The notes beneath the pieces are model-generated. The model worked only from the letters and a program-made list of their open reading frames with translations. It did not search any database and was not told the DNA's origin. Of a stretch of 32,000 bases of DNA, positions 3,057 to 32,000 are shown piece by piece. The position numbers were made by a program, and so were the translations under genes. The DNA lies in the NCBI GenBank assembly GCA_965219535.1, contig CBDCNV010000002.1, positions 1,230,001 through 1,262,000 on the forward strand. The letters are read 5' to 3'. Positions within the stretch are counted from its first letter, which is position 1. Every line of letters starts with the position of its first letter. The DNA comes from Opitutales bacterium. Lineage in GTDB: Bacteria; Verrucomicrobiota; Verrucomicrobiia; Opitutales; PNEW01.

Positions 3057-3063
3057 TAATCTC

Positions 3064-6041: not shown

Positions 6042-6229
6042 CTTCGTCTTCGTCTGTCTCTTCGTCTTCGTCCAGCAAATAAATAGACATTTTTGATTAA
6101 TAATTATTATACCTAAGGTGGAGCGGGCTGTCCCTAGCACGCTTCTTCAATTACAACTGAATCAAACGCGCTGGGACAGCGCGTTCCAACATGATACTGT
6201 AGTAAATAACTGCGGGACAAAGACGAAGC
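6042..6229. repeat. Composite hairpin module M1: (CTTCGT)n array - A element - inverted (ACGAAG) remnant
   Basis: cttcgt cttcgt ctgtct cttcgt cttcgt at 6042-6071, the A element at 6117-6190, and agacgaag at 6221-6228. It lies between convergent gene ends. Confidence 0.7.
6117..6190 (+). repeat. A-family palindromic element (copy A1, slightly degenerate right arm)
   Basis: ggtggagcgggctgtccctagcacgc - loop - aacgcgctgggacagcgcgttccaac. It starts 90 nt downstream of the stop at 6027. Confidence 0.85.
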
Positions 6230-7427: not shown

Positions 7428-7428
7428 T

Positions 7429-11285: not shown

Positions 11286-11293
11286 AAGAATAT

Positions 11294-11310
11294 TATCGAG
11301 GACCTCGATA
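11294..11310. promoter_or_regulatory. Perfect 17-bp palindrome TATCGAGG-A-CCTCGATA, 8 nt upstream of the hydantoinase B start codon
   Basis: Read directly: 8+1+8 with perfect dyad symmetry. Its position fits an operator, or a small hairpin next to the translation start. Confidence 0.35.
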
Positions 11311-11469
11311 TGTTTTAAGTGTCAGGTGTTAAGTCAAAGTGCTGTAGATTAATACTTCAGTATTCGACTTATGATCATCAATAATCTCAATTCCCTTTAC
11401 GACAAAAAATAAATCAATTGAGACTTTTCTACTATGCTAACCTAAATTTCCGCTATGTAGAGACAAAGG

Positions 11470-11583
11470 GGTGGAGCGGGCTGCCTGACGGCCATTGCCT
11501 AACACTGCACAGCGACGGCTGTTCCCTAGCACGCTTCTTCAATTACATCATTCTTAAACGCGCTGGGGACAGCCCGTTCCACC
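11470..11583 (+). repeat. A-family palindromic element carrying a B-element insertion in its left arm (copy A2)
   Basis: ggtggagcgggctg[cctgacggccattgcctaacactgcacagcgacggctgt]tccctagcacgc - loop - aaacgcgctggggacagcccgttccacc. A degenerate fragment follows at about 11611-11643. Confidence 0.85.
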
Positions 11584-11643
11584 TTATTGCTTAACACATA
11601 AAACCTAAAACCCCTAGCACGCCATTACGGAGTGACGGCGGCT

Positions 11644-11670
11644 AATACCTAAAACTTAAAACCTAACACT
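11644..11670. repeat. Heptamer array (AAYACCT/AAAACTT type) x4
   Basis: aatacct aaaactt aaaacct aacactt, immediately 3' of the P1 stop hairpin. It is paralogous to 15554-15580 and appears inverted at 31111-31138. Confidence 0.8.
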
Positions 11671-11706
11671 TCTCGAAGAGATCACTCGATAGTGATCTCT
11701 TCGAGA
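11671..11706 (-). terminator. Perfect 16-bp-stem hairpin spanning the stop codon of the Ig-like protein gene (candidate terminator or mRNA 3' stabiliser)
   Basis: tctcgaagagatcact-cgat-agtgatctcttcgaga. The right arm on the + strand encodes the last codons (LEEIT) and the stop lies inside the structure. The downstream mRNA is only moderately U-rich (agtgttaggttttaagtttt). Confidence 0.45.
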
Positions 11707-13907: not shown

Positions 13908-14136
13908 GGTGATCTTTTTAATAGGTTGAATCTCAAAAGGGATGAAATTTCTAAAAAGAGATATATAGGGCGTCAAATGTTATTCTTCTTTTAATGAAAT
14001 CTTGATGGATAGGTTAAGAATACGACGCTATCAAAAATATTTAAGTATATCATAAGCAGTTACTTAATCATAGTGAACAGCATTCAGTGATCTTTATTCA
14101 GTTGAAAGGAACGATAATCAGCAAACGGGTGTAATT

Positions 14137-14167: not shown

Positions 14168-15542
14168 GGTATAGGTTCAAGACATTCTTTACACAAAAGG
14201 TTCAGGACATCCTTTACAGATTGCCAAAGAAAGAAGGATGCTAAGTAAGGGGTATGATGTCATGGAAGGAAACAAATAAAATGGACCAAAGATACCAATT
14301 CGCCCTGGAATCGATGCAACCGGGAGTAAAGATGAACGAGCTGTGTGAAGACTACGGGATCAGCCGACCGACAGGGTATAAATGGAAGAAGCGCTTCCTG
14401 AGCGAAGGGATGGAGGGGTTGCACGAGCGCTCACGCCGACCGCATGGAAGTGTTCAGGAACTATCCGAATCAGTAGTATGTACGCTGATCAAACTCAAGC
14501 ATCATCACCCGACGTGGGGCCCCTACAAGATCCGCGAGCTTTACCAGAGGCGTTACGGGAAGGCCCCCTCAGACTCGAGCGTGAAACGGGTCTTGGAACG
14601 TGCGGGACTGGTGCAAAAGCGTCGGCGCAGAAGCGCTCAAAAAAGCGGACGCCTTTACCGCAGCGTCAAGGCCAGTGGCTGTAACGAAGTGTGGAGCGTA
14701 GACTTCAAAGGGTGGTGGCACACCGTTGATGGCAACCGTTGTGAACCTTTGACGGTACGGGATGAATGGAGCCGCTATGTATTAGAGGTGCGGGTGCTCA
14801 GTTCAGCCCGTAGCGAAGCGGTGCGTGAATGCTTCACAAAACTCTTTGAACGCTATGGACTTCCCGCTTGCATCCGCAGCGACAACGGCAGTCCCTTTGC
14901 CAGTGCCAATGCGGTCCTGGGCCTGAGCAAACTGGCGGCCTGGTGGCTGGCCTTAGGGATCAATCTCGAGCGTGGACGTCCGGGTAAACCCCAGGATAAC
15001 GGTGCCCATGAGCGTCTCCATCGCGATATCAAAGAGGAGTTGCAAAAACATGCCCAGGACGATCTTCGCACCCAACAGGTGGCCTTCGATCTGTGGCGCA
15101 AGACCTTCAATGAAGAACGCCCCCATGCGGCTCTTGCCATGAGCACGCCCTCTGAAATCTATCAGCACAGCTCTCATCCTTACGGTGGCACTCCTGCCGA
15201 TATCAGCTATGATTTGATGACTCGCCGGGTCTCAAAAAGCGGGTCTATCAAACTCGATGGCTTCCAGATTCCTATCTCCACCGCCCTCGCCGGTTGGAGC
15301 GTTGGACTAAAACCACTAGACACGGTACACTTCGATGTTTACTTTGCCACTCTCAGAATCGGTCAGATTGACCTTTCAACGGCTGCTTTCATTGGGGCCG
15401 CTTGCGGCCCCAACAATGCCAGCCAAACCTCTAAAACCGCATAACATTAACTTAACTATATAACCCGATTACCGTTCAGCATCCCTCACAAAGTGTAAAC
15501 CATGTCTTGATCTAAATCTGTAAACCATGTCCTGGTTGTACC
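14168..15542 (+). mobile_element. IS481-family insertion sequence (boundaries approximate, +/- ~10 bp)
   Basis: It has a single DDE transposase ORF. The imperfect terminal inverted repeats each contain two 17-18-nt sub-repeats. Left: caagacattctttacac and caggacatcctttacag. Right: gtgtaaaccatgtcttg and ctgtaaaccatgtcctg. Homology between the flanks of P1 and P2 resumes at about 15553. A possible CCTC direct repeat sits at both junctions. Confidence 0.75.
14254..15444 (+). CDS. IS481-family DDE transposase (integrase core domain)
   Basis: 396 aa. The N-terminal HTH is NELCEDYGISRPTGYKWKKRF. DDE candidates are WSVDFKG, IRSDNGSPF and DNGAHERLH. Confidence 0.9.
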   Translation: MMSWKETNKMDQRYQFALESMQPGVKMNELCEDYGISRPTGYKWKKRFLSEGMEGLHERSRRPHGSVQELSESVVCTLIKLKHHHPTWGPYKIRELYQRRYGKAPSDSSVKRVLERAGLVQKRRRRSAQKSGRLYRSVKASGCNEVWSVDFKGWWHTVDGNRCEPLTVRDEWSRYVLEVRVLSSARSEAVRECFTKLFERYGLPACIRSDNGSPFASANAVLGLSKLAAWWLALGINLERGRPGKPQDNGAHERLHRDIKEELQKHAQDDLRTQQVAFDLWRKTFNEERPHAALAMSTPSEIYQHSSHPYGGTPADISYDLMTRRVSKSGSIKLDGFQIPISTALAGWSVGLKPLDTVHFDVYFATLRIGQIDLSTAAFIGAACGPNNASQTSKTA

Positions 15543-15553
15543 CCTCTATGTAT

Positions 15554-15580
15554 AACACCTAAAACTTAACACCTAACACT
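15554..15580. repeat. Heptamer array (AACACCT/AAAACTT) x4
   Basis: aacacct aaaactt aacacct aacactt. It is paralogous to 11644-11670. Confidence 0.8.
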
Positions 15581-15581
15581 T

Positions 15582-15615
15582 ATCGAAGAGATCACTCAAT
15601 AGTGATCTCCTCGGT
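15582..15615 (-). terminator. Stop-codon-spanning hairpin of paralogue P2 (15-bp stem, one mismatch and one G:U)
   Basis: atcgaagagatcact-caat-agtgatctcctcggt. It is the counterpart of 11671-11706. Confidence 0.4.
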
Positions 15616-17827
15616 AACAACCTCGATCGCATCCCCGTCTTCATTGGCAAAGGTGGCATCGATACTCAGTGTCGGCTGAGGCGTTTCGTCAGACTTGAAG
15701 TTGTTCTGGGTGATCAGGGTTTCAAACCCGGTCGTTGTCGATCCACTCTCCGCAACGACGACTGCGGCACCGTTCGTCTGCAAGAGGTCACCACCGGTGA
15801 TCCTTAACCCGGGGTTACCGGCGGCTACGGTAAAGGAGCCTTCACCGAAGAGAATGTGAGGTACTGCATCGCCATCAGCATCGATATCACCGATCGTTAA
15901 GCGTACTGCGATCGGTACTCCGCGCGCGTCGACACCAACCTTGCCCGTGCTTCCACTGAACACAGCATTCGATAACTGTACCCCTCCCAGTCCCGTGGAG
16001 TTGACTACTTCCACGAGGGCCACATCGGCCTGGGCGTCATAGACCTGTCCTTCGGGGAACAGCGCCTGGTTAAAGGCGTTGATCCTGCCCACCGTGAAGA
16101 TGCTGAAGAAGGTATTAGCGTCCGCTCCATCGATGACCACGCTCGGCTTGCCCGTCACATACTCGACGGCCTGATTGTAGCGTGGTGGGGTATGGCCGGT
16201 GGTAGGAAGGTGGCCGGATCGAGGGTTACAGTAAAGGTCCCGTTGCCTGAGAACTCTACCTGCACAATGTCCTCGTTTTCGTCCATGAAGGATACGCGGG
16301 TGATCTGTCCCGGTTTGGCCTGGAGTTGGACGGACTCTCCGGTGAGTAATATCTGGTCGAAGACGTTGCCGTTGGCATGTTGAATGTCTTCACCGGCGAT
16401 ATCTCCTGAGCCGTCGAGAACGAGGGGAATGGAAGGCGCTGATACGGTAACGACCGCGGTATCGCTGTCCGCTGTCCCACCGGCATTGGTAATCTGTACC
16501 CAGAAACTTGTGCTCGCGGTGAGCGCGCCCGTGTCTAAAGTTCCAGCCGTCGCGCCGGCGACAGGAGCAGCGGTGTCACCGCTGTTGCCGGTGTACCACT
16601 GGTAGGTAAGATCGTCGCCGGTTGCCGCAACGGACAAGCTAGCCGATGCTCCGGATGCGACCTCCTGGCTTGCTGGCTGCGTGGTGATAGAAGGAGCAGT
16701 GGCGGGTGGGGGACCTTCGGAACCGGTGCCCGGGGCGCCGATCGGTGTAAAACCAAAATCGTCAATCGAAGTACGGCCGGACGGATTTACATCACCATCT
16801 ATCAGGACTATCCTGCCAATGCCGCCTGGAGCTCCTAATTCAGCCGCATTAATCCTTGTAAAACCGGGTTTGAAATCAGAGTTAATATTGCTCTCTAAAT
16901 TATCAACCGTAAAGATTAAGTTGTCGTTTGTATCATAGACTTCGATAAAGCCATCAGGATTGATGCCTTCTTTAGGTGCAGTACTCTGAGAGGCGAATGT
17001 ATCAATTTCATAAGCCGGAGTTTCAAAAGTGATGGTTGCCTGCTCACCATCAAATATACCAAACGCAGTGGATGACGAGCGCACATAATCGGTACCATCA
17101 GAAAACTCGACAATAATTGATCCCCCTTCAAACGTAGCAGTATTCGGCGAAGTCCCAATGACCAGCGGTTCGTCCTGACCTGCACCAGGACTGAATTCAT
17201 CAAAATTGCTGTAAACCGTGTTATTCGAGGGATAGTCGGTCAGGGTGAATCCCAGGTCGTCGATCACGAGTTTTCCCGTAACATTAAAAAACTTCACTTC
17301 TCTTATCCCACTGAGGAAATCAAAATCGGTTGTATCAAAAAAACTACCGCTGTCGGCGACAAAGCTGTATAAAGTGGGGTTAGCACCAGGGCTGATATTT
17401 GCCGGCAGTCCTTCGATAATACCGCAATCTCCACAGGTACCTCCGAGTACGATGTTAACTCTTCTGTCGGAAGCCAGAGATGTACCCGTATTAATTTCTC
17501 CTCTTAGCTCAAATTTGCCCCCGCCTGTCGTTTCACCCGCATAAAATTCAAGAAATTGAATCCCCCTGTTGGAGACAATCCTTCCCTCCTGTCCCGGCCC
17601 CAGGTTAAAGCCTTCGTTCCCGAATGTAACTGCGCTGGATCCTCTAAAGTTTCCACCGTGAAACCGACGAGCGTAACCACGTTTGGCTCCACACCGATGA
17701 AGATCGTCCCTTCACCGCTTACGTTTTCGAAATCAGTGAAAATCTCGAGGTCTTGAGGCAGGGCGATGAGAAGAACGGGCGATAAGACTGAGGCAATGAT
17801 GAATGCGAGCGATTTTTTTAATAACAT
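15592..17827 (-). pseudogene. Secreted Ig-like-domain protein, paralogue P2, interrupted by two frameshifts (or two sequencing errors)
   Basis: Three tracked ORFs (17827-17504, 17297-16155, 16158-15592) align colinearly with P1. Break 1 is at 17603-17604, where P1 has GGG (13682-13684) and P2 has GG. Break 2 is a net +2 nt patch at about 16181-16213. The frame between 17600 and 17297 stays open after correcting break 1, as checked by hand near 17297-17340. Confidence 0.75.
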
Positions 17828-18034
17828 ACTGAGCTTTTAATAGATTGAATTTCAAAAGGGATGCAATTTGTAAAAATAGATAGATAAAGCGTCAATTATT
17901 AAACTGATTTTAATGAAATGTTTATGGATTAATAAAAGATACGATGCCATCATATAGTCGTAAGTATATCATGAGTAGTGACTTGAATTATTATGGTTAG
18001 TGTTACTCGTCAGGTGTTAAGTTTTAAGCCGACA

Positions 18035-18138
18035 GGTGGAACGCGGTGCCTGACCGCCATAGCCTTGGCGACGGTTGTTCCCTACCGCGTTTAGAATGTA
18101 GTAATTGAAGAAGCGTGCTAGGGACAGCCCGCTCCACC
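18035..18138 (-). repeat. A-family palindromic element with B insertion (copy A3, inverted orientation)
   Basis: ggtggaacgcggtg[cctgaccgccatagccttggcgacggttg]ttccctaccgcg - loop - gaagcgtgctagggacagcccgctccacc. It ends 68 nt downstream of the stop of the 18206-18436 gene. Confidence 0.85.
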
Positions 18139-18436: not shown

Positions 18437-18551
18437 AGTTTATAATGTTTGATGTTTAAAAGAGTCGAAACGACCAAAAAATTATATTCTTCTTTACCAC
18501 ATACTCACGTATCCCTTTTGACTTTCGAATCCATTGGATCAACTATTGCTT

Positions 18552-18600
18552 CACTGTTCACTGTTCACTGTTCACTGTTTACTGTTCACTTCTCACTTCC
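18552..18600. repeat. Heptamer array (CACTGTT)x7, last units degenerate
   Basis: cactgtt x4, tactgtt, cacttct, cacttcc. It ends 1 nt from the stop codon of the CocE-like gene. The tracked ORF 18449..18637 is a translation of it. Confidence 0.9.
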
Positions 18601-18601
18601 C

Positions 18602-20518
18602 CTATCGCCTCGGTATAACGGGCAGCACAATATGTGAGGGATGCGTACTATCCAGGTGAACAGTATTTTGCGCTATCACTTTATGCGTATGTCGTCCCAT
18701 GGGTTCACCTGTATTCGGATTTATGTCTAAGCGAGGAAAATTACTGCTCGATATATCGAACCTGATTCGATGACCGGTCTTGAACAGGTTGCTCGTCGCG
18801 TGAAGCGTAATCATAATAGGATAAATTTGTCCCGGCACCATCATCTCCGGTTCGGTCCAAGAATTGCGGTACCGACACCTCAGTATTGTGTCGCTTAGGT
18901 TCATTCGGTACCCATCGGGATAGTCTTCATTCGGAGGATAAACATCGATGAGTTTTGCCGTAAAGTCGGTGTCAATCGCAGTCGACGAAATCCAAAGTTT
19001 GACCGTTGCTTGTCCGGTAACCTCGGTGTCCTCTTCCAGTATTTCAGTTTGAAATGCCAGCACGTCGGAGCGTTTGTCGAGAGGAAGGTACGGGGGATTG
19101 ACCCCAAGCATCCATTCGGCTTCAACCTGATCGACAGGGCCCCATGTGACAATATGTCGTCCATGCCTGGCGTAAAAGGCGGACCGCTTGCCGAAAGATG
19201 GTACTTCCTTAAAGCCACCCGGTGGAGGAACAACCTCGGTGAGATGCGCGAGACCGCCACCCGCTGACGGAACCGGGTTATCCGGGTCGTATTCGAAGGT
19301 GATCGATTCTTTTTCTGATTGCGGCTTTTTTTCGGTCAAACCGAATTCAGATGTCAAAAAAAGATTTCGCTCTTCAGTCCGTGCAATCGGCCACTCCGCT
19401 TCATTGCGCCATTGTCCCCCGTGATCGATAAGCCCATCTGACGTTTTACGACCTGAACCACCGCCCATAACGAAAATCTCAACTGGCGAATCGTTTTCGA
19501 TCCCGTTGTTTTCATCCCTTAACCAATGATCAAACCATCGCAATCTTATCTCGCTGTGTTTCGGGTACCCAACCATCGCGTCTGTTCCAAACTCGACATC
19601 ACCCAGTGACGAGGTTTTGACCCGCATCGTTCCGTGTCCCCAGGGACCGATCAGCAGGCGGGATGGATTTTTGTTACGCGCTATCATCGCCTCAAAGTAT
19701 CCTGTAGAGCCGTCGATGAACGGGTCAAACCAACCTGCGGTGATCAAACAGGGAATATCCGAATGGCGATCCCAGTATGGAGTCTGGTCGTTGCATTCCT
19801 GCGCCCACCATTCATCGTACTCACCTCGGTAATAATAATTAAACAAGGTTTCTTCAAGGTGCGGTGCTACTGAAAGCGGAATCTCCCCTTTTTTGAATGG
19901 CATATTATTGATTACAGACCGTGCATTAATCAAACCGTCAGCCAGGGTCCGAATCGTTCCCTCATCAGCGGGAACTTCATGGGCATCAAACGCGTGGTTG
20001 TAAATCGCGGTGTACATGTCCAGGGCCATGGCGCCGCCCTCGCGGGCTTCGTGTAAGTATATATTTGTCGGCCCCTGTTCGGGGCAGATCGTTACCAGGT
20101 GTGGGGGGCGATGCAACGCCGCCTGGGTTTGAACAATTGACCGGTGTGAGCTGCCCATCATCCCCACGCGTTCATCCGACCAGGATTGAGCTGCGATCCA
20201 TTCGACAGCATCATACCCGTCATCACCGTCCCAGGGATTGCAGGTATGGTAGTAACGGCCGTCACCCTCAGACTTATACCTGGAGCGTAGGTCCTGGAGA
20301 ATGAATACGTAGCCTTGTTCGACGTATTGTACTGGCACGCCATCCCATTCAATCGCCGACTTATCATAGGAAGTTCGCACCAATATTGTCGGCCACTTAC
20401 CGTCTAATCTCAATCCATCCGTTCCGGCGGGAAAGTAGATATCCGTCGCCAAGCGGACCCCATCCCGCATCGGGACCATCACGTCTGATTTTAAAAAAAC
20501 TTTGTAAGGAACAGCCAT
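18602..20518 (-). CDS. CocE/NonD family hydrolase (X-Pro dipeptidyl-peptidase S15-like alpha/beta hydrolase with C-terminal jelly-roll domain)
   Basis: 638 aa. VMVPMRDGVRLATDIYFPAG...WPTILVRTSYDK is the typical family N-terminus. The nucleophile-elbow region is VGMMGSSHRS. Confidence 0.85.
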   Translation of the reverse strand: MAVPYKVFLKSDVMVPMRDGVRLATDIYFPAGTDGLRLDGKWPTILVRTSYDKSAIEWDGVPVQYVEQGYVFILQDLRSRYKSEGDGRYYHTCNPWDGDDGYDAVEWIAAQSWSDERVGMMGSSHRSIVQTQAALHRPPHLVTICPEQGPTNIYLHEAREGGAMALDMYTAIYNHAFDAHEVPADEGTIRTLADGLINARSVINNMPFKKGEIPLSVAPHLEETLFNYYYRGEYDEWWAQECNDQTPYWDRHSDIPCLITAGWFDPFIDGSTGYFEAMIARNKNPSRLLIGPWGHGTMRVKTSSLGDVEFGTDAMVGYPKHSEIRLRWFDHWLRDENNGIENDSPVEIFVMGGGSGRKTSDGLIDHGGQWRNEAEWPIARTEERNLFLTSEFGLTEKKPQSEKESITFEYDPDNPVPSAGGGLAHLTEVVPPPGGFKEVPSFGKRSAFYARHGRHIVTWGPVDQVEAEWMLGVNPPYLPLDKRSDVLAFQTEILEEDTEVTGQATVKLWISSTAIDTDFTAKLIDVYPPNEDYPDGYRMNLSDTILRCRYRNSWTEPEMMVPGQIYPIMITLHATSNLFKTGHRIRFDISSSNFPRLDINPNTGEPMGRHTHKVIAQNTVHLDSTHPSHIVLPVIPRR

Positions 20519-20605
20519 GAATTTTTATTAAGATAAGTTGGTTCCCTTCGACTACGCTCAGGGCAAGCAGGGTTCAGGAAGAAAGATATACTAATGACAG
20601 ATACC

Positions 20606-20652
20606 AGGGTTCAGGGTTCAGGGTTCAGGGTTCAGGGTTCAGGGTTCAGGGT
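20606..20652. repeat. Heptamer array (AGGGTTC)x6.7
   Basis: Read directly. The same unit recurs at 22069-22103 and 24265-24283. Confidence 0.95.
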
Positions 20653-20853
20653 GGAAGATGTCGGGCTACGCCCTCGGTACAGGGTTCAACAACCTTTGCT
20701 ATACTAGCATTAACAAAAAATGGATGAACGGTGAAATACTTTTTAAACGTATATGCTGAAAATAGGCTAGTTTTTATTCGTTCAAATTAAATTCTCTAAA
20801 ACTATTCTTGTGTTTCTTGTGCCTTATGTGGCTATCTCTTAATTCCGCAATCG
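20634..20853. repeat. Repeated divergent-promoter block R1 (paralogous to 24265-24503)
   Basis: Three colinear shared blocks with 24265-24503. Block 1 is 20634-20693 vs 24265-24324 (agggttcagggtggaagatgtcgggctacgccctcggtacagggttca.caac, one difference). Block 2 is 20725-20752 vs 24356-24383 (tgaac.gtgaaatactttttaa.cgtat). Block 3 is 20805-20840 vs 24439-24473 (cttgtgt.tcttgtgcctt.tgtggctatctc). Confidence 0.8.
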
Positions 20854-20938: not shown

Positions 20939-22060
20939 ATGAAAATAACTGAAGTCATATGCCAGGTGCTGCGCATTAAAAATGTCGAATCAAAATCCTC
21001 TGGCGCACAGGACACCTTGCTCGTGCGCATTCAAACTGACGAGGGAATTGAAGGGATCGGTGAATGCGACGCTCAACCGGAAGTTTGCAAGGCAGTCATC
21101 GATGCTCCCTTCAGTCACAATATTGCCTGTGGCTTGCGATTACTTATCCTCGGAGAGGACCCTCTCGATGCTGAGGGCGTATGGAAAAAGATGTACCGGG
21201 GCAGCGTGTTCTTCGGGCGACGGGGAGTGACGATTGCAGCGATGGCCGCGGTTGACATGGCGCTCTGGGATATTAAAGGGAAAAAAACTGAACTACCAAT
21301 TCATCAACTCCTGGGTGGGAAAAAACATGATGAGATCAAGGCTTATGCCTCCATCCTCTTTGGCCGAGACGGCGCGGAGACGAAAGAAATTGGACAGCGA
21401 TGGATTGAAGCGGGATACAAAGCGGTTAAGTTTGGCTGGGAGCCGATGGGTGAAAGTGAAGCTGTAGATTTGGACCTGGTGTCCGGAGCACGGGAAGGTC
21501 TGGGGGAGAGTGCGGATCTGTTAGTGGATGCCGGTTGTGTGTGGGATGCCAAGACAGCTCTGAATCGGGCGGAAAAATTCTCCGAATATAATATAAGCTG
21601 GTTAGAGGAACCGCTGAGCCAGGACGATATGGAGGGATATCAATGGCTGAGAGAGCGATCACCGGTACCGATTGCCGCGGGTGAAGGTGAATGTGGATGG
21701 TTCGCCTTTAAACCGTGGATCGAGAATCAACTTCTGGATATCTATCAAGTGGATCTAGCGAGAAACGGGTTCACGGAAGCAAAAATTATCGGGGAGAAAG
21801 TAGAGGAAAAGGGAGCTAAGCTGTGTAATCATTGTTATAAGACACCGATTAGTGTAGCCGCCTGTTTGCATTGGCTGAGCACAACAAACACCGCTTTTTT
21901 GTTTGAGGACTGCGTTGAAGATTCACCCTTGAGACATGAACTCACACATGAAAAGATGCATGCCATAGACGGCATGATTCATGTCCCCGATGCCTCCGGT
22001 CTCGGTGTTACCCTCAATGAGGAATTAATCCAGGAACTACTCGTCGCCGAATCGAGGTAG
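20939..22060 (+). CDS. Enolase-superfamily enzyme, mandelate racemase/muconate-lactonizing subgroup (probable acid-sugar dehydratase)
   Basis: 373 aa. The start MKITEV...IQTDEGIEGIGE has the capping-domain pattern, followed by ALWDIKGK. Metal-ligand positions are LLVDAG, WLEEP and IAAGEGE. It also has DLARNG and a late His (NHCY). Confidence 0.85.
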   Translation: MKITEVICQVLRIKNVESKSSGAQDTLLVRIQTDEGIEGIGECDAQPEVCKAVIDAPFSHNIACGLRLLILGEDPLDAEGVWKKMYRGSVFFGRRGVTIAAMAAVDMALWDIKGKKTELPIHQLLGGKKHDEIKAYASILFGRDGAETKEIGQRWIEAGYKAVKFGWEPMGESEAVDLDLVSGAREGLGESADLLVDAGCVWDAKTALNRAEKFSEYNISWLEEPLSQDDMEGYQWLRERSPVPIAAGEGECGWFAFKPWIENQLLDIYQVDLARNGFTEAKIIGEKVEEKGAKLCNHCYKTPISVAACLHWLSTTNTAFLFEDCVEDSPLRHELTHEKMHAIDGMIHVPDASGLGVTLNEELIQELLVAESR

Positions 22061-22068
22061 AAGATTCG

Positions 22069-22103
22069 GGGGTTCAGGGTTCAGGGTTCGGGGTTCAGAG
22101 GTT
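22069..22103. repeat. Heptamer array (RGGGTTC)x5, degenerate
   Basis: ggggttc agggttc agggttc ggggttc agaggtt, starting 9 nt after the stop at 22060. Confidence 0.85.
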
Positions 22104-22142: not shown

Positions 22143-22171
22143 GGTGGAGCGGGCTGTCCCTAGCACGCTTC
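22143..22171 (+). repeat. A-family element, left arm only (copy A4)
   Basis: ggtggagcgggctgtccctagcacgcttc, then unrelated sequence. Confidence 0.8.
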
Positions 22172-22258
22172 TGATCTCTACCGAATGACAATATGAGATT
22201 GCCCTACTTTATTATTTATCTCTTGAGGAAGCCGACGGATAAAGGTTAGATTTAACCA

Positions 22259-22880: not shown

Positions 22881-22983
22881 TGTCATCGCGAGGTTGCTTG
22901 TCAACCGTGGCGATCCAGGGGAATATCGGTTGCGTCTGGTAATCCGCCTGGATTGCTTCGTCGCGTTGCTTCTCGCAATGACA
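22881..22983. repeat. MITE-like element, D family
   Basis: tgtcatcgcgagg ... tctcgcaatgaca, with internal paired segments (cgtggcgatccaggggaatatcgg / ccgcctggattgcttcgtcgcg). The tracked ORFs 22804..23145, 22860..23114 and 22894..23142 are translations of it. Confidence 0.8.
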
Positions 22984-23047
22984 AATAAAATATTCCGCAA
23001 TTTGCAATCGACGATCAGAAATCGGAAATCGGCAATTGCCACACTGT

Positions 23048-24247
23048 TCACTTCTTGGTTGGTGGCCAGGGATCGAGACAGGCCCCGGACGGGCGTGTTC
23101 CTGTCGGGCGCCACGGCACGCTGTCATAAGACTGGTATTTAACATCGAGCCACGGTGTCTCTAAACGCGTATGGCCATTATAACGTGATGTCAGTGCAGC
23201 TTCTAAAATGCCACTCGTAAGAACCGTCCGTTCAACGGCGTAGGAGGGCACACCTGTAAGAAACATTTCTTCTACATTTAAAGATAAATAACTGAAATGT
23301 GAATAAGCGCCGTCACCGCCACCATGATACTGGAGATAGAATTCAGTGGCCTGGATCTTGTTATCAATTCTTGCAGCGTAGGCCCAGTCCGCAACATAGC
23401 CGTCTAACATCAGTATTACGCCTTTAAAACCGTCACGATATTCGATGAGAAATAAGGCCGGGTTTTCACATTGGTCTTCCATTCGCCCTTCAGGTTTTTT
23501 TTCAATGCACTCACAAGCAGCCTCAGCTAAATCGTAGGACCATCGCCCCTCTTTGGCGGCTTTCCACACGGCATCGCCCTCTAAACAGGTCACGGCGGCG
23601 ACCCCTGTCTCTCCGCCGGTCCGTCTTTCGGCCATACACTGTAAAACTTCAACCGTATGAAATCCGTAGACATCCAACCCATGATAGCCGATAGCGACAG
23701 CTTCTGTTATAGGTGTATCAAGCTCATGTTCCAACCAGGGCTTGCGCCAGCAGAGGGGAACGGATGAACCCGCCATGAAGGGGGCGTTAAGCTCATTCGC
23801 TCGATCATACATCCATTTTATATCCTGCCAGTTATAGGAGAGGTGCTTGTCGTTAAAGATTGGTACGGATTTTTTACTCGTAGCTAACACCCCGCAAATT
23901 TGTTCCATGAAATACTTTCGTGGGAAAAGTTGTTGTTCTTTTTCATTATAGGCATAATCGCCGTGCTCCGCGACCAGGAGCACCCCGTCGACCGCGAGCT
24001 CATCCCCGCCAAGGGTCAAGGCTTTTACAATCGTCGGATAGATCGGTACATTATGCTCTGCAGCTAACTTGCGGCCCATGTCATTTTCGGGGAAATGATC
24101 GATATACATCGAGGCTATCTCCACGCGCGGTTCAAACAATCCATCATCGGTGGGAAATCCCTTCAGGAATTTCGTCACCATTACATCGGCATGGGAGCGA
24201 GGCCAGTACTCAGTTATTATCGCGGCTATCTTTTTTTTCTTTGGCAT
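23048..24247 (-). CDS. Conserved hypothetical protein, paralogue 1 of 2 (layout reminiscent of Gfo/Idh/MocA oxidoreductases but without a GxGxxG loop)
   Basis: 399 aa, colinear with 29899..31092 and highly similar by eye over the whole length. KIAAIITEYWPRSHADV occupies the position of the Rossmann glycine loop. VDGVLLVAEHGDY and IFNDKHLSYNWQDIKWMYDRANELNAPFMAGSS parallel the iDaV.I.tP..H and EKP motifs of that family. Confidence 0.6.
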   Translation of the reverse strand: MPKKKKIAAIITEYWPRSHADVMVTKFLKGFPTDDGLFEPRVEIASMYIDHFPENDMGRKLAAEHNVPIYPTIVKALTLGGDELAVDGVLLVAEHGDYAYNEKEQQLFPRKYFMEQICGVLATSKKSVPIFNDKHLSYNWQDIKWMYDRANELNAPFMAGSSVPLCWRKPWLEHELDTPITEAVAIGYHGLDVYGFHTVEVLQCMAERRTGGETGVAAVTCLEGDAVWKAAKEGRWSYDLAEAACECIEKKPEGRMEDQCENPALFLIEYRDGFKGVILMLDGYVADWAYAARIDNKIQATEFYLQYHGGGDGAYSHFSYLSLNVEEMFLTGVPSYAVERTVLTSGILEAALTSRYNGHTRLETPWLDVKYQSYDSVPWRPTGTRPSGACLDPWPPTKK

Positions 24248-24264
24248 CTGTCAACCTGCGGTTG

Positions 24265-24283
24265 AGGGTTCAGGGTTCAGGGT
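24265..24283. repeat. Heptamer array (AGGGTTC)x2.7, start of repeated block R2 (24265-24503)
   Basis: agggttc agggttc agggt, followed by the same ggaagatgtcgggctacgccctcggtacagggttca seen at 20650-20688. Confidence 0.9.
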
Positions 24284-24475
24284 GGAAGATGTCGGGCTAC
24301 GCCCTCGGTACAGGGTTCAGCAACTGCTGCTATTCGAGCTATAGCATTTAAAGTGTGAACAGTGAAATACTTTTTAATCGTATTGATCTTAAAATATTCT
24401 GGGTTGTATTTTATCAATATAAATTTCTTTAATTCTTATCTTGTGTATCTTGTGCCTTTTGTGGCTATCTCTCTA

Positions 24476-25596: not shown

Positions 25597-25653
25597 AACG
25601 CGCTAGGGACCAACCGTCGCCAAGGCTATGGCGGGCAGGCAGCGCGTTCCACC
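25597..25653 (+). repeat. A-family element, right arm with B insertion (copy A5; left arm missing)
   Basis: aacgcgctaggga[ccaaccgtcgccaaggctatggcgggcagg]cagcgcgttccacc, starting 34 nt after the stop at 25563. Confidence 0.8.
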
Positions 25654-25731
25654 AATCTCACTTACTAATTATTGGATAAATCCGCATTTCCGCTTCATCG
25701 CATACCCACATTCTCACATCAACGCATTTCC

Positions 25732-25763
25732 CTTTTGACCTTTTGACTTTTTGACCTTTTGAC
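25732..25763. repeat. Octamer array (YTTTTGAC)x4
   Basis: cttttgac cttttgac tttttgac cttttgac, ending 15 nt before ATG 25779. Confidence 0.95.
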
Positions 25764-25778
25764 TCTATTCCATCGAAA

Positions 25779-26570: not shown

Positions 26571-26651
26571 AGCGCGGTATTATTACGTAGGATTTTATGA
26601 ATTAAAATCTTCGTCTTCGACCCCGTTTACTTCATAAATATTGCAACCCAG

Positions 26652-26726
26652 GGTGGAGCGGGCTGTCCCTAGCACGCTTCTTGTATTACGACTCGCTCTA
26701 ACGCGCTGGGGACAACGCGTTCCACC
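26652..26726 (+). repeat. A-family palindromic element, no B insertion (copy A6, the empty site)
   Basis: ggtggagcgggctgtccctagcacgc - ttcttgtattacgactcgctct - aacgcgctggggacaacgcgttccacc. Confidence 0.9.
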
Positions 26727-26776
26727 ATAATATTATAGTTAATAATTGAATAGACGAAGACGGGTCTGCGTCCCTT

Positions 26777-27012
26777 TGTCATTGCGAGGAGCGAAGCGAC
26801 GAAGCAATCCAGGGGAATGTATGTTGCAAAATTATTGTCCCAGGATGCTAGGCTTCGCTCAGTTGACAATTGCCGTTCTACAATATTCATTGAGCAACTC
26901 ATGTTTTTTAACGGAGACGGGTATGTGTACCCACAATGACTATTTCCCTGGAATGGAAGATGTCGCTGCGCTCGGTAGCCGCGGTCGGCTTTTAACCTCC
27001 CTCGCAATGACA
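26777..27012. repeat. MITE-like element, D family, longest copy (236 bp)
   Basis: tgtcattgcgaggagcgaagcgacgaagcaatccagg ... cctccctcgcaatgaca. Together with 14 upstream nt it is flanked by a 12-bp direct repeat AATAGACGAAGA (26749-26760 and 27013-27024). Confidence 0.8.
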
Positions 27013-27123
27013 AATAGACGAAGAGGCAGACGTAATCGCAGACGAAGATTTAAATTTCACTACTAACTTGAAAACGATCATTATTCACTATTTACTGATC
27101 TCTAATCACTGATTTTCAAAATC

Positions 27124-28215
27124 ATGGCAACGGATACCATAGCTGCATCTGATTTCGCTGACACGAAAAAGGGTTTGGAAAAAGGATTAGATTGGTACCA
27201 GTGTCCGATCGACAGGAAGGTGCTCAATAAATTGTCGGAGAAAAACGACTGGCAACCCTTTCTTCATATTGTCGCTCAGCTTAGTTTCTCGACCGCTACC
27301 GGCGCATTTGCATTCTGGGCATTCCACCACCTGTCATGGCCCTGGATAGTTCTAGCGGTTTATTTTCACTGCTCTTTTTATAAATTTTTTGGTCACGGCA
27401 CGGGAGGCCATGAGTTATCGCACAAGACGGTATTCAAAACTCAAGCCTTGAACGAGTTTTTCATTCGCATCGTTGGTTTTCTGACCTATTTCAACTATAT
27501 CTGGTTTCGGCACAGTCACGTTAAGCACCATCAATTTACTGTTCACCATGAGCTCGACATGGAAGTCGAGCTTCCACAACAATATCCATGGTACCAAGTT
27601 ATCGGGGCATTTACCTTCAGCATTCGTGACTTCAATCGAATCTTACCCAGGCTTTTTCGAAACGCGTTCGGTCGCCGCCGCGAGGTTATTCTCAAATCAG
27701 TTTGGGAACAGAGAATTACCCCGGAGACAAAGCCGGAAGCTTTGAAAAGAATGGTAAACTTTTCGAGAATCATCCTCGGTGGTCATTTAGCGCTCGCTAT
27801 TGTCTTTATTGCTACGGGAAATTGGATTCTCTTGTTCCTTGTTACCTTTGCGCCATTCATCGCGATGTGGTTTGTTGTTCTTACGCATTTGCCTCAGCAT
27901 AAAGGGATGAAGCCGGATGTCGCGGATTGGAGGCAAAGTACCAGGACCTATCTCGCAGGGCCCATTGTGCGGTTTTTTTACTGGAATATGAATTATCATG
28001 TGGAACATCACATGTATCCGGCTGTCCCGTTTTACCATCTACCTAAGTTGCGCAAGGCGATCGAAGATGACCTCCCCATCGCAACAAAAGGTCTCGTTGC
28101 CACGTGGGTAGATATATTCAAAACGCTCAGGCGTCAGAATAAGGATTCGGACTATTATGCCGAGCTAGTTTATCCAGAGAAAACAGGGTCCGGTGAGCTG
28201 CCAATTGCGGTTTGA
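27124..28215 (+). CDS. Membrane fatty-acid-desaturase-like di-iron oxygenase (paralogue 1)
   Basis: 363 aa. Three His boxes are present: HELSH, HSHVKHH and HVEHHMYP. There are hydrophobic segments before box 1 and between boxes 2 and 3. Confidence 0.8.
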   Translation: MATDTIAASDFADTKKGLEKGLDWYQCPIDRKVLNKLSEKNDWQPFLHIVAQLSFSTATGAFAFWAFHHLSWPWIVLAVYFHCSFYKFFGHGTGGHELSHKTVFKTQALNEFFIRIVGFLTYFNYIWFRHSHVKHHQFTVHHELDMEVELPQQYPWYQVIGAFTFSIRDFNRILPRLFRNAFGRRREVILKSVWEQRITPETKPEALKRMVNFSRIILGGHLALAIVFIATGNWILLFLVTFAPFIAMWFVVLTHLPQHKGMKPDVADWRQSTRTYLAGPIVRFFYWNMNYHVEHHMYPAVPFYHLPKLRKAIEDDLPIATKGLVATWVDIFKTLRRQNKDSDYYAELVYPEKTGSGELPIAV

Positions 28216-28226
28216 TTTTTAGAATT

Positions 28227-28423
28227 AAAATCTTTGTCTGCGTTTACTTCATAAATATTGCAACCCAGGGTGGAGCGGGCTGTCCCTAGCACGCTTCTTG
28301 TATTACGACTCGCTCTAACGCGCTAGGGATCAGCCGTCGCCAAGGCTATGTCGGACAGGCAGCGCGTTCCACCATAATATTATAGTTAATAATTGAATAG
28401 ACGAAGACGAGGACGAAGATTTA
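28227..28423. repeat. Composite hairpin module M3: inverted hexamer termini enclosing A element with B insertion
   Basis: The left terminus is aaaatctttgtctgcg and the right terminus is agacgaagacgaggacgaagattt. The core is A7. Confidence 0.8.
28269..28373 (+). repeat. A-family palindromic element with B insertion in right arm (copy A7, the filled site)
   Basis: It is identical to A6 through ...ctctaacgcgct. It then reads aggga[tcagccgtcgccaaggctatgtcggacagg]cagcgcgttccacc. Confidence 0.9.
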
Positions 28424-29623: not shown

Positions 29624-29696
29624 GGTGGAACGGGCTGTCCCTAGCGCGTTGAAGGATTGTAATTAAAGAAGCGTGCTAGGGACAGCCCGCTCCACC
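29624..29696 (-). repeat. A-family palindromic element (copy A8, inverted orientation)
   Basis: ggtggaacgggctgtccctagcgcgtt - loop - gaagcgtgctagggacagcccgctccacc. Confidence 0.9.
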
Positions 29697-29712: not shown

Positions 29713-29770
29713 GGAGGTCCACGCGGTGCCTGTCGGCCATAGCCCATAGGGCGACGGCTGATCGTGGCCG
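29713..29770 (-). repeat. Single degenerate A arm carrying a B element (copy A9)
   Basis: ggaggtccacgcggtg[cctgtcggccatagcccatagggcgacggctg]atcgtggcc. Confidence 0.7.
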
Positions 29771-29898: not shown

Positions 29899-31092
29899 TC
29901 AAGAAACCACACACGCGCCCGTCGGACGGGGTCCGGTAGGTCGCCATCGAAGCTCAGAGTATGACTTATATTTTACGTCGAGCCAGGGTGTCTCAATGCG
30001 TCGATGTCCTTCGTATCGGGATGTCAGCGCGGCTTCTAAAACGCCGCTTGTCAGTAAGGTTCGTTCAGCGGGGTAGGTCGGTGATCCACTGATAAACATT
30101 TCTTCAATATTGAGCGACAAATAGGTGAAGTGATTGTGCGCTCCTTCAGCGCTGCCTTCAGCGCTGCCATGACCCTGACAATAAAATTCTGTCGCCTTGA
30201 CCTGATTGTCGACCCTGGCTGCATAAGCTAAATCTGTAACATACCCGTTTAACATTAAAACCGCGCCCTTCAAACCATCTCGGTATTCGATCAGAAATAG
30301 GGTGGGATTTTTACAGTGGTCCTCCATCTGTCCATCAGGTTTATTTACTATGCAAGCACAGGCTGCCTCGGCCAGTGTTCTCGACCATTGCCCCTCATTG
30401 GCCGCTTCCCACACCACCTCACCCTCTAAGCAGGTTACTGCTTTGACACCGGTCTCACCGCCAATGCGTCTTTCAACCATGCATTGCAGGACCTCAAGGG
30501 CGTGAAATCCATAGATATCCAGCCCGGAAAAACCGATGGCGACGGCCTCTTCAATCGGACTTTCCATATCATGCTCAAGCCAGGGGTTGCGCCAGCACAG
30601 AGGAAGTGATGAACCGGCCATGAAGGGAGCTCCGAGTTGCTTTACTCGATCATACATCCATTTAATATCATGCCAGTTATAGGAGAGGTGCTTGTCGTTA
30701 AAAATCGGTACCGCTTTCTCACTCGTCGCCATGACCCCACAGATTTGCTCCATGAAGTATTTCCTCGGATAAAGATGCTGTTCCTTCTCGTTCCATGCGT
30801 AATCTCCATGTTCTCCGATTAAGAGCACACCATCAACAGCGAGTACATCCCCACCCAGCGTTAATGCTTTTACAATACTGGGAAAGATCGGAATGTTAAA
30901 TTCGGCACTGAGTTTTCGGCTCAAATCCCCTTCGGGAAACTGATCGACATAAAGTGAAACAATATCAACACGCGGTGTAATCATGCCCTCATCGGTAGGA
31001 AAACCCTTGAGGAATTTCGTCATCATGACGTTGGCATGGGAGAAGGGCACGTACTCCGTAATGATTGCCGCAATCTTTTTTCTTTCAGCCAT
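29899..31092 (-). CDS. Conserved hypothetical protein, paralogue 2 of 2 (same family as 23048..24247)
   Basis: 397 aa, beginning MAERKKIAAIITEYVPFSHANVMMTKFLKGFPTDEG. It is colinear with its paralogue apart from a short insertion (GSAEGSAEGAH vs GGGDGAY). Confidence 0.6.
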   Translation of the reverse strand: MAERKKIAAIITEYVPFSHANVMMTKFLKGFPTDEGMITPRVDIVSLYVDQFPEGDLSRKLSAEFNIPIFPSIVKALTLGGDVLAVDGVLLIGEHGDYAWNEKEQHLYPRKYFMEQICGVMATSEKAVPIFNDKHLSYNWHDIKWMYDRVKQLGAPFMAGSSLPLCWRNPWLEHDMESPIEEAVAIGFSGLDIYGFHALEVLQCMVERRIGGETGVKAVTCLEGEVVWEAANEGQWSRTLAEAACACIVNKPDGQMEDHCKNPTLFLIEYRDGLKGAVLMLNGYVTDLAYAARVDNQVKATEFYCQGHGSAEGSAEGAHNHFTYLSLNIEEMFISGSPTYPAERTLLTSGVLEAALTSRYEGHRRIETPWLDVKYKSYSELRWRPTGPRPTGACVVS

Positions 31093-31110: not shown

Positions 31111-31138
31111 AGTGTTAGGTGTTAAGTTTTAGGTTTTA
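31111..31138. repeat. Heptamer array (RGTKTTA)x4, inverted relative to 11644-11670 and 15554-15580
   Basis: agtgtta ggtgtta agtttta ggtttta. Confidence 0.8.
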
Positions 31139-31186
31139 ATTAGATTCTAAATAAAATGGCTATTGTCATTAATAGATTTTATTAAT

Positions 31187-31261
31187 TGTCATTGCGCCTG
31201 CCGGCCATAGCCTTGACGACGGATGAAGAATCATGCAATTGCGGGAGCCGCGGCAATCCAG
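31187..31261. repeat. Partial D-family element interrupted by a B element (second copy at 31510-31584)
   Basis: tgtcattgcg[cctgccggccatagccttgacgacggatg]aagaatcatgcaattgcgggagccgcggcaatccag. Confidence 0.7.
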
Positions 31262-31349
31262 AAAGTTATAATACCCTTACTCAGAACGATTAACCCTAAG
31301 ATGTAAACCTAACACGGTCTTGTGCGCCTTAGCGTGTCAGTACTCTTCC

Positions 31350-31381
31350 CTTTTGACATTTTGACGTTTTGACCTTTTGAC
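31350..31381. repeat. Octamer array (NTTTTGAC)x4 (copy 1 of the duplication)
   Basis: cttttgac attttgac gttttgac cttttgac. Confidence 0.95.
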
Positions 31382-31672
31382 TAAAGTTAATCGAAAATGA
31401 GCTCTGACGATCAAACCACCTACCCCGATGAAGAGGCGCGCTGCCGATTCTGGACGGAGCATATGGATCGCGGCTACGATGGCTATTGTCATTAATAGAT
31501 TTTATTAATTGTCATTGCGCCTGCCGGCCATAGCCTTGACGACGGATGAAGAATCATGCAATTGCGGGAGCCGCGGCAATCCAGAAAGTTATAATACCCT
31601 TACTCAGAACGATTAACCCTAAGATGTAAACCTAACACGGTCTTGTGCGCCTTAGCGTGTCAGTACTCTTCC

Positions 31673-31704
31673 CTTTTGACATTTTGACGTTTTGACCTTT
31701 TGAC
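31673..31704. repeat. Octamer array (NTTTTGAC)x4 (copy 2), ending 15 nt before ATG 31720
   Basis: Identical to 31350-31381. Confidence 0.95.
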
Positions 31705-31719
31705 TAAAGTTAATCGAAA

Positions 31720-32000
31720 ATGAGCTCTGACGATCAAACCACCTACCCCGATGAAGAGGCGCGCTGCCGATTCTGGACGGAGCATATGGATCGCGGCTAC
31801 GAGCTGGTTCAGTCTATGGCAAAGTACGAGGTCAATGAGTGTGGCGAGGGCGTGGTTTCAATTCCGGAAGCAGCTGAGAAAGCAGGGGTAAAAATGCTTT
31901 TTTCTGAAACTAAAATTGCCGGTAACCTGGATCGGATATATGTTATCCGTGAGAGTATCATGCCGGACCTCCTGGCGATCGCGCTTGATATGAAAGAGCG
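31720..32000 (+). CDS. Hypothetical protein, 5' fragment (runs off the window)
   Basis: It is not in the ORF track because no stop is reached. ATG 31720 opens a frame that stays open to nt 32000: MSSDDQTTYPDEEARCRFWTEHMDRGYELVQSMAKYEVNECGEGVVSIPEAAEKAGVKMLFSETKIAGNLDRIYVIRESIMPDLLAIALDMKE. It shares its leader (ATCGAAAATG) and octamer array with the gene at 25779. I cannot assign a family. Confidence 0.6.
   Translation, partial: MSSDDQTTYPDEEARCRFWTEHMDRGYELVQSMAKYEVNECGEGVVSIPEAAEKAGVKMLFSETKIAGNLDRIYVIRESIMPDLLAIALDMKE

Follow-up and report, generated by a model that had tools for sequence, protein, structure and literature searches.

GGTGGA-tagged REP doublets in an Opitutales lineage and the RAYT transposase most likely to have spread them

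The stretch of DNA analysed here (the window, 32,000 nt) covers positions 1,230,001 to 1,262,000 of contig CBDCNV010000002.1 in assembly GCA_965219535.1 of an Opitutales bacterium (Verrucomicrobiota), and is part of contig ctg829431 in the ENA assembly ERZ25067264. Its genes include members of the DHDPS, MR_MLE, amidohydrolase and FAA-hydrolase families, two fatty-acid desaturase paralogues, two copies of an Ig_7-domain gene and an IS481-family transposase gene, with no tRNAs in the window (Table 1). The spacers between the genes contain a dispersed imperfect palindrome, exemplified by the copy at 26652-26726, for which the original prediction, made from the DNA letters alone, had listed nine stretches and a consensus. 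Both were found as it described them. Analysis of the repeat indicated that it is a doublet of repetitive extragenic palindromic (REP) units, and that it is not a gene, an RNA or a terminator. REP doublets account for much of the intergenic repeat mosaic in this Opitutales lineage, and the main value of recognizing them lies in correct annotation.

A covariance model of the 26-nt arm was run over the whole window in an unfiltered scan and identified 10 intact units (E <= 1.5e-5) and four units split by an insert, giving 14 units at eight sites, with no further units in the 32 kb; none were present in the 9 kb past the right end of the window. The coordinates of the nine predicted copies hold, with the count reduced to eight sites, since 29713-29770 shares only a nested insert of ~30 nt with the others. 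All eight sites are intergenic, as had been proposed, and the overlapping open reading frame (ORF) at 26669-27013 on the minus strand looks spurious. Eight of the nine copies had been placed 34-100 nt past a stop codon; this stands for seven of the eight sites, at 33-98 nt from a Pfam-supported gene's stop, but not for 18035-18138 (463 nt). In the doublet at 6117-6190, the right arm is degraded, with a 1-nt deletion in the loop, TTCCAAC in place of the tag and a score well below the ~45 bits of the other arm.

Table 1. Repeat units, inserts, modules and selected genes in the window (positions count from its first letter)
Feature	Position	Strand	Composition	Context
REP doublet	6117-6190	+	Y 6117-6142 (45.1 bits); spacer TTCTTCAATTAC...; degraded Z 6166-6190 (29.6 bits)	89 nt past stop of DHDPS-family gene; convergent genes on either side
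REP doublet	11470-11583	+	Y 11470-11534, split by 39-nt insert 11483-11521 (B variant); Z 11558-11583	98 nt past stop of minus-strand Ig_7 gene
REP doublet, reversed	18035-18138	-	Z 18035-18090 with 30-nt insert B 18048-18077; Y 18113-18138	nearest Pfam-supported gene stop 463 nt away
Single Y unit with TTCT	22143-22172	+		82 nt past stop of MR_MLE gene
Single Z unit	25598-25653	-	insert B 25611-25640	33 nt past stop of amidohydrolase gene
REP doublet	26652-26726	+	Y 26652-26677; spacer 26678-26700; Z 26701-26726	81 nt past stop of FAA-hydrolase-family gene
REP doublet	28269-28373	+	Y 28269-28294; Z 28318-28373 with insert B 28331-28360	53 nt past stop of first desaturase gene
REP doublet, reversed	29624-29696	-	Z 29624-29649; Y 29671-29696	48 nt past stop of second desaturase gene; convergent genes on either side
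Other tagged hairpin, not Y/Z	29713-29770	+	GGAGG-tCCACGcggt ... ATCGTGGCC (CGTGGCC); B-like insert 29728-29760
Wider module	26608-26764	+	TCTTCGTCTTCG, AT-rich flank ending ATATTGCAACCCAG, doublet, ATAATATTATAGTTAATAATTGAATA, then GACGAAGACGGG
Wider module	28231-28407			around doublet 28269-28373
Insert B in REP units	18048-18077, 25611-25640, 28331-28360; variant 11483-11521
Insert B in other contexts	29728-29760, 31196-31225, 31519-31548
IS481-family transposase gene	14254-15444			between the two Ig_7 gene copies
Ig_7-domain gene, two tandem copies	11682-13976, 15592-17984
Fatty-acid desaturase genes	27124-28215, 28493-29575
Genes of 397-399 aa, paralogues	23048-24247, 29899-31092
Heptamer array (GGGTTCA)n	20599-20663, 22048-22098, 24251-24301
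Heptamer array (CTGTTCA)n	18547-18607
Heptamer array (TTAACAC/CTAAAAC)n	15553-15580, 31111-31138
Octamer array (TTTTGACN)n	3023-3067, 25722-25774, 31348-31384, 31671-31707
Tandem duplication, perfect, 323 nt	31156-31455 / 31479-31778			upstream of 397-aa gene (29899-31092, minus strand)
Dispersed repeat GTCATTGCGAGGAGCGAAGCGACGAAGCAATCC	22942-22985, 26775-26818
GTAG-tagged hairpin GGAAGATGTCGCTGCGCTCGGTAGCCGCGGTCGGCT	4901-4945, 26946-26990

Each REP unit is 26 nt long and consists of the 5' tag GGTGGA, a 7-nt stem half, the loop GTCCCY and the 7-nt complement of the stem. In the left arm of the doublet (the Y unit), the stem halves GCGGGCT and AGCACGC enclose the loop GTCCCT and pair with a central mismatch, while in the right arm (the Z unit) the halves ACGCGCT and AGCGCGT enclose the same loop and pair perfectly. 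Y and Z are inverted and stand tail to tail, with the tags pointing outward and a spacer of ~23 nt between them, and TTCTT directly follows Y on its 3' side in every case. The left arm GGTGGAGCGGGCTGTCCCTAGCACGC shows no variation among six copies in the window, and across three genomes the Y arm is identical in 42 copies. Compared with the left arm, the right arm read as its reverse complement has fixed differences at positions 7 (G/A), 23 (A/G) and 26 (C/T). The two bases 5' of the tag are mostly A. The 490 kb of sequence that was fetched yielded 140 units, 78 of them in 40 doublets and the rest outside doublets. All 40 doublets are composed of one Y and one Z, and like pairs never occur.

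Because circularity in the stem test was to be avoided, units were collected with the pattern GGTGGA-N7-GTCCCY-N7, in which only the tag and the loop are fixed and the stems are unconstrained. This gave 116 matches with 26 distinct sequences, all of which form at least five of the seven stem pairs. As the tag is part of the pattern, the constant GGTGGA among these 26 distinct units is uninformative alone; independent support for it comes from the GGTGG(G)A tag at the REPs that flank the gene of a REP-associated tyrosine transposase (RAYT) in Pelagicoccus. Across the 26 distinct units, 87% of the stem cells are paired, changes on both sides are seen in five of the seven stem pairs, and the covariation score is 0.32, compared with 0.13 in shuffles (0 of 500 reach 0.32) and with 0.17 or less when the partners are slid. 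The variant stems ACGCGGT/ACCGCGT, GCGGCCT/AGGCCGC and GCCGCCT/AGGCGGC likewise keep their self-complementarity inside the unit. In the alignment of whole doublets, the two local hairpins score 0.159 and the 26-bp hairpin between the arms scores 0.055, with the inter-arm pairs 10-47, 23-34 and 26-31 broken in most doublet sequences, although 85.6% of the 26 inter-arm pairs can form. Compensatory variation thus tracks the single-unit hairpin and not the long inter-arm stem, and the conserved structure is two short hairpins, one per arm. The long stem with a loop of 22-25 nt that had been proposed for the element can form, but it is not the structure that is conserved. As single-stranded DNA, the doublet 26652-26726 folds at -17 kcal/mol (z -3.3) and the Z unit at -8.4 kcal/mol (z -3.5). 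The covariation thus points to the hairpin of the single unit as the constrained structure, which bears on the way a RAYT recognizes its substrate.

In the terms by which REPs and their paired forms, the REP doublets forming hairpins (REPINs), are defined together with RAYTs (PMC3116915, PMC5581495), the unit is an imperfect palindrome of 20-40 nt that folds as a hairpin (7-bp stem, 6-nt loop), it has, like the GTAG and CGTC super-families of REPs, a conserved tag at the hairpin end (GTGG within GGTGGA), and its copies are many, dispersed and mainly outside genes. The doublets resemble the REPINs of P. fluorescens and E. coli described there in being inverted REP pairs with a short spacer that could fold into one long hairpin, in being extragenic and strongly over-represented, in flanking a Y1 (HUH) transposase gene with the same repeats, and in lacking target duplications. 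They differ from REPINs in their host, which belongs to the Verrucomicrobiota (Opitutales) and not to the Gammaproteobacteria, in that the members of a pair are always of different type, and in that compensation supports the within-unit hairpin over the long hairpin of the doublet. In the bacterial interspersed mosaic elements (BIMEs) of E. coli (Ton-Hoang et al. 2012; PMC3479197), two REP variants likewise alternate in inverted orientation with a partly conserved linker, and a 5' tag adjoins the hairpin foot (GTAG for E. coli, GTGG here). Unlike in those BIMEs, the stem is shorter (7 bp), some units are split by inserts of 24-40 nt at one fixed position, and the sequence is unrelated.

The nearest comparison within the same order is Opitutus terrae, whose genome is high in GC. 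According to PMC3733652, this species is very rich in GTAG-type REPs, most members of one REP family have a tag 'mutated to GTGG', and REP dimers have spacers of 20-100 bp. The order, the GTGG tag and the dimers are shared with the elements studied here, but many of the O. terrae copies are intragenic, whereas 88 of the 94 sites in our material lie outside ORFs of at least 120 aa. Of the O. terrae families GTAG-17 to GTAG-20, peptides are given there for intragenic copies of GTAG-18 and GTAG-19 (VGPALAAG, GTGVPPV, HGRHARAT); these fit none of the six frames of Y or Z, and the element is therefore probably not a member of these two families. The original prediction could assign no described family, and a matching described sequence family was not found here either. 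It had also allowed that the element might turn out to be a known family of REPs or of miniature transposable elements with inverted repeats (MITEs) with a known mobilizing enzyme; this holds for its kind, an ordinary REP with an identifiable mobilizing enzyme, and not for the sequence family. The element is probably a new REP sequence family; its kind is well known, but its phylum has been little studied. To our knowledge, REPs and RAYTs have so far been studied almost only in Proteobacteria, and the family adds a clean verrucomicrobial case with a conserved GGTGGA tag.

To follow the distribution of the family across genomes, the 22-mer GGTGGARCGGGCTGTCCCYAGC, which occurs eight times in the window, was searched in a genome collection of 596 Gb, where we estimate ~0.3 matches by chance. 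It has 66 exact matches in 58 blocks, all in six metagenome-assembled genomes of Opitutales/Opitutae: 38 in OY829953.1 (complete, 4.49 Mb), where they are distributed all round the chromosome, 19 in CBDANS01, five in JAJFLV01, two in CBDDCJ01, and one each in CALFZM01 and JBEIHL01. This abundance is not due to chance, and confinement of the element to the window, which would have counted against the original prediction, does not hold. OY829953.1 was seen as 8-kb blocks around pattern matches, amounting to ~6% of the chromosome, and at least 79 units are present in these blocks; the hundreds of copies per genome that had been projected are not shown by these counts. The window, which aligns with 4.40-4.42 Mb of OY829953.1 at 85-94% identity, is far denser in units (14 in 32 kb) than the OY829953.1 average.

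Analysis of the placement of the sites revealed a median distance of 83 nt to the nearest stop codon. Among 79 sites located between two called ORFs, 45 are in co-directional, 24 in convergent and 10 in divergent spacers, which hold 57%, 21% and 22% of the spacer bases, respectively (chi-square p = 0.034), so that divergent spacers are under-used; within the co-directional spacers, 31 of the 45 sites are closer to the stop than to the next start (p = 0.008). The gene-end bias is real but moderate, and the placement near stop codons that had been predicted is a tendency and not a rule. Tabulation of the orientation relative to the upstream gene, which had been suggested as a check, gave no preference (Y to Z in the same direction in 13 cases and in the opposite direction in 16), and a replichore test found no orientation bias along the OY829953.1 chromosome.

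Such placement could be read as the mark of regulatory hairpins selected by the host (3'-end stabilizers, attenuators or protein sites) and multiplied by recombination or duplication, with the link to a RAYT being incidental. The 33-98 nt distance at seven of the eight window sites, the 83-nt median and the scarcity in divergent, promoter-bearing spacers fit this explanation, and so do the copies that lie inside duplicated segments and two copies kept at the same sites in relatives. One of the latter is the single Y unit at 22143-22172, which is retained in L065-L067 (fetched loci are numbered with the prefix L), where the neighbouring protein is 97% identical; the other is the doublet at 18035-18138, whose OY829953.1 orthologue is identical except for a 10-nt duplication of the tag end. 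The 13 to 16 split in orientation, the lack of a T-tail, the orthologous spacers of close relatives that hold different repeats or none, and the framing of a RAYT gene by Y and Z in three lineages and two neighbourhoods argue against it, and we consider it unlikely. It is compatible with a REP-RAYT system as a secondary effect, as for the REPs of E. coli; the hairpins, most of which stand shortly after a gene end and in one orientation or the other, may also stabilize or end transcripts.

A gene for a structured non-coding RNA, or a cis-regulatory RNA recurring downstream of genes, would share the covariation and the stable fold of the hairpins. However, the Rfam search that had been proposed as a check returned no family at gathering score in the window, both orientations relative to the neighbours are equally used, the unit measures just 26 nt with a 7-bp stem, and near-identical copies within genomes are accompanied by turnover of sites between relatives, all of which makes this explanation exceedingly improbable. 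Intrinsic terminators were rejected as well, as no T-run follows the hairpins (ATAATA, TTATTG, ATGATA and similar sequences do). A terminator scan gave 17 matches compared with 14.7 in shuffles, which is no excess, and the only matches overlapping the copies (26665-26644 and 28282-28261, minus strand) are built on the tag and its flank.

The statement that the window contains no RAYT gene was borne out by a RAYT profile search of all window ORFs, which was empty. The two paralogous genes of 397-399 aa were considered as mobilizing genes and rejected, as they have no Pfam or NCBIfam transposase signal and their synteny is kept in relatives. Every ORF of the fetched loci was searched for HUH/Y motifs, and one protein was found to have them, encoded at L018:7114-7557 in OY829953.1. 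It contains the HUH and tyrosine motifs, scores 25 bits with Pfam Y1_Tnp (cut-off 23), and matches the NCBIfam model 'REP-associated tyrosine transposase' with 74.8 bits, compared with 17.1 bits for the IS200 TnpA model. Its best solved structural relative is E. coli TnpA-REP (4ER8), with which the motifs H-L-H and Y-I-R-H-N-P-V (Y-I-x-x-N-P-V) align. Homologues at 50-60% identity are common in Verrucomicrobiota and are often named 'REP element-mobilizing transposase RayT' by JGI.

The RAYT gene lies between Y with its TTCTT and Z (Y-TTCTT-RAYT-Z), which is exactly the position of the doublet spacer. This arrangement recurs on a further contig of ERZ25067264 (L059), which is syntenic with L018 and carries a 94% identical gene (L059:3179-3616), and on JGI metagenome contigs (L060-L063), where the RAYT is 72% identical and the neighbourhood is different. 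The RAYT profile detected one such gene per lineage in 1.27 Mb of fetched loci. A distant RAYT gene (L127, 62% GC) is flanked by hairpins that share the AGGGAC loop. In the cultured relative Pelagicoccus enzymogenes, REP pairs with the tag mentioned above and with different stems stand on both sides of the RAYT gene, and in this analogous system the recognition of tag and hairpin is testable. Comparison of L018:6950-7700 and L059:3000-3840 revealed that the RAYT locus is rearranged: a Z with a 24-nt module and the spacer that follows it lie downstream of RAYT in OY829953.1 and upstream of Y in ERZ25067264, where an extra doublet stands after the RAYT gene.

The tagged hairpin unit, the inverted Y-Z pairs and the presence, both in this assembly and in relatives, of a RAYT gene with Y and Z on its two sides bear out the REP/BIME likeness that had been proposed, and we conclude with a probability of about 0.85 that the element is a REPIN/BIME-like REP doublet most likely spread by a RAYT of the HUH/Y1 type. 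E. coli TnpA-REP and IS608 recognize a hairpin and a tag on single-stranded DNA, and joining takes place without duplications. By analogy with these two systems, the RAYT would bind the folded hairpin and its 5' tag on single-stranded DNA, and would cut and rejoin without target duplications, so that the doublets would be copied as non-autonomous units.

Target-site duplications are lacking at 37 of the 40 doublets, a number equal to that for shuffled flank pairs. This count also bears on the MITE alternative of the original prediction, according to which the element would be a deletion derivative of a DDE insertion sequence mobilized via terminal inverted repeats. The arms do resemble long terminal inverted repeats and an IS481-family transposase gene is present in the window, but no more than 5 nt are common to the Y arm and the IS481 element's ends, single arms stand alone as complete units (22143 and 25598), variation is compensated inside each arm, and the gene between Y and Z encodes a Y1 and not a DDE transposase. 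A classical DDE-type MITE is without support and largely refuted, and we regard it as very improbable.

Comparison of orthologous spacers revealed that the sites turn over between relatives. At the 26652 site, the 97% relatives carry a different, GTAG-tagged hairpin with the same outer TCTTCGTCTTCG...GAAGACGGG palindrome, and an 89% relative has only a 96-nt spacer. At the 25598 site, the 97% relatives (L065) have a Z-like unit that is degenerate and holds another insert, of 38 nt, and the 89% relative (L070) has just a 31-nt spacer. The OY829953.1 spacer orthologous to 29624-29696 is unalignable and contains a different repeat. These comparisons show turnover; that the doublets transpose is an inference.

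Several points weigh against the spread of the doublets by a RAYT. The orthologous spacers compared include no clean filled and empty pair for a whole doublet, being unalignable, occupied by a different repeat or different by a larger rearranged segment; an automated flank search for empty doublet sites returned just the shared copy at 18035, and L065 and L070 show turnover or short spacers with no exact junctions. The NCBIfam score of the L018 protein is just below the curated cut-off of 80, and the view of RAYT copies per genome is limited to the ~6% of OY829953.1 that was seen. A shared assembly and similar coverage tags (3x, 5x) do not prove that the RAYT and window contigs belong to one genome. 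The bias towards gene ends is modest and depends on ORF calls that are crude, and some copies, such as the desaturase-flanking pair and those beside the multicopy Ig_7 genes, may have spread by segmental duplication. The difference between L050:2965-3302 and L064:8727-8841 was considered as a simple doublet insertion and rejected, as it is a 253-nt segment flanked by a duplicated gene end. This extra segment of OY829953.1 consists of a doublet and (CTGTTCA)n beside the 3' end of an M15 peptidase gene, the last 38 nt of which are duplicated on both sides of it.

Of the 140 units, 25 are split directly after the 5' stem half. In 13 of these the insert measures 30 nt (B: GCCTGCCCGCCATAGCCTTGGCGACGGTTG), and in the others 24, 38-40, 51 or 54 nt; the consensus of B is (G)CYTGYCN-GCCATAGCCTTGGCGAMGGCTG-R. 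The entry point is fixed just 3' of the 5' stem half (...CT^G), and the orientation of B to the tag is uniform in 20 of the 20 intact tagged units listed. Between OY829953.1 and ERZ25067264, the RAYT-flanking REPs differ in that Y either contains B or cleanly lacks it, as Z does with the 24-nt module. The metagenome contig L125 has the 24-nt module and B in tandem at the entry point, and the REP beside the distant RAYT gene of L127 has B at the same point. B is also found in other hairpin families; the hairpin type of 29713-29770 occurs with B in L015 and in the metagenome contigs L082 and L106 as well.

A metagenome scan with the 22-nt core of B identified at least 128 matches in at least 120 stretches (L073-L192), on contigs of 31-69% GC, and the core is identical among the matches listed while the flanks are unrelated. 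Since base composition is random outside the 30-nt span, the edges of B are sharp. In three metagenome contigs, B begins 2 nt past a tRNA gene. The idea that B always sits at a hairpin tip was rejected, as the flank complementarity in 117 metagenome contexts is 2.36, compared with 2.36 in shuffles. No Rfam family was found at E <= 1 on eight B-bearing contigs, B is absent from the PLSDB plasmids, and its sequence string was not found in the searchable literature.

The small dispersed repeats (SDRs) of Nostoc punctiforme treated by Elhai et al. in 2008 are reportedly units of 20-30 nt that lie inside other repeats and are present or absent at homologous sites. Insert B, and not the doublet, is similar to these SDRs in its size, its nesting and its presence or absence at homologous sites, and the genome studied here shares with that setting a richness in heptamer and octamer tandem repeats. 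Unlike the SDRs, B belongs to another phylum, differs in sequence, and has a core that is identical across very diverse metagenome contigs. It is conceivable, if doubtful, that B is itself an independently mobile, ultra-small DNA element. The fixed entry point and orientation, the presence or absence at orthologous RAYT-flanking REPs, and the sharply bounded, invariant core amid unrelated flanks speak for this idea. It is weakened by the fact that a moving enzyme for B was not found and that deletions could account for the differences between genomes; alternatively, B may be a functional hairpin of wide conservation. If a RAYT-type enzyme does insert B, REP hairpins would serve as substrate and landing pad alike, and palindromes would become nested. 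With its 30 nt, sharp edges, invariant core and occurrence in very different metagenomes, B could matter more than the doublets, and together with the layered palindromes around the doublets it merits separate attention.

About a quarter of the doublets are surrounded by such a wider module (loci L009, L015, L016, L029, L031, L042 and L058), which consists of a (TCTTCG)n / (CGAAGA)n outer inverted repeat and AT-rich inner flanks, ..ATCTTGCAAyCCA before the doublet and yTGATATT..AATAACTGG after it. In the module at 26608-26764, each outer hexamer run is the reverse complement of the other. The copy at 28269-28373, which lies in the second module of the window, is a near-identical paralogue of 26614-26760, B excepted. 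The two tandem desaturase paralogues are ~72% identical, and their 3' flanks with the doublet module are 95% identical, which suggests gene conversion or repeated arrival of the module. In L065-L067 (~6950-12000, next to an FAA-hydrolase-family protein of 97% identity), the desaturase pair is replaced by other, mostly unannotated genes. The replacement segment of L066 carries a phage-type integrase gene and is therefore probably an island inserted at the spacer in question.

The Ig_7-domain gene encodes a protein of 764 aa, and its two tandem copies are 75-94% identical over the repeat blocks. They stand on either side of the IS481-family element, and the second is split into three ORFs. Of the 58 blocks with REPs, at least 12 contain homologues of the Ig_7 gene (~80% nucleotide identity), and it therefore belongs to a large paralogous family, often located beside doublets. 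The dispersed repeat and the GTAG-tagged hairpin at the end of Table 1 represent two further repeat families, of which the hairpin may be a second REP family.

Heptamer tandem repeats are present in many spacers of the window. These arrays resemble the short tandem repeats of heterocystous cyanobacteria and are unexpected in Verrucomicrobiota. A Nostoc-like cyanobacterial source, which the heptamer and octamer repeats had at first suggested, was rejected, as the 22-mer matched Opitutales/Opitutae genomes only. Both copies of the 323-nt tandem duplication contain a B-like sequence and an octamer array. The octamer arrays at 25722-25774, 31348-31384 and 31671-31707 overlap sigma-70-like hexamers (TTGACC, 18 nt, GAAAAT), and the first of them stops 5 nt short of the start codon at 25779; the octamer arrays may be promoter or regulator sites.

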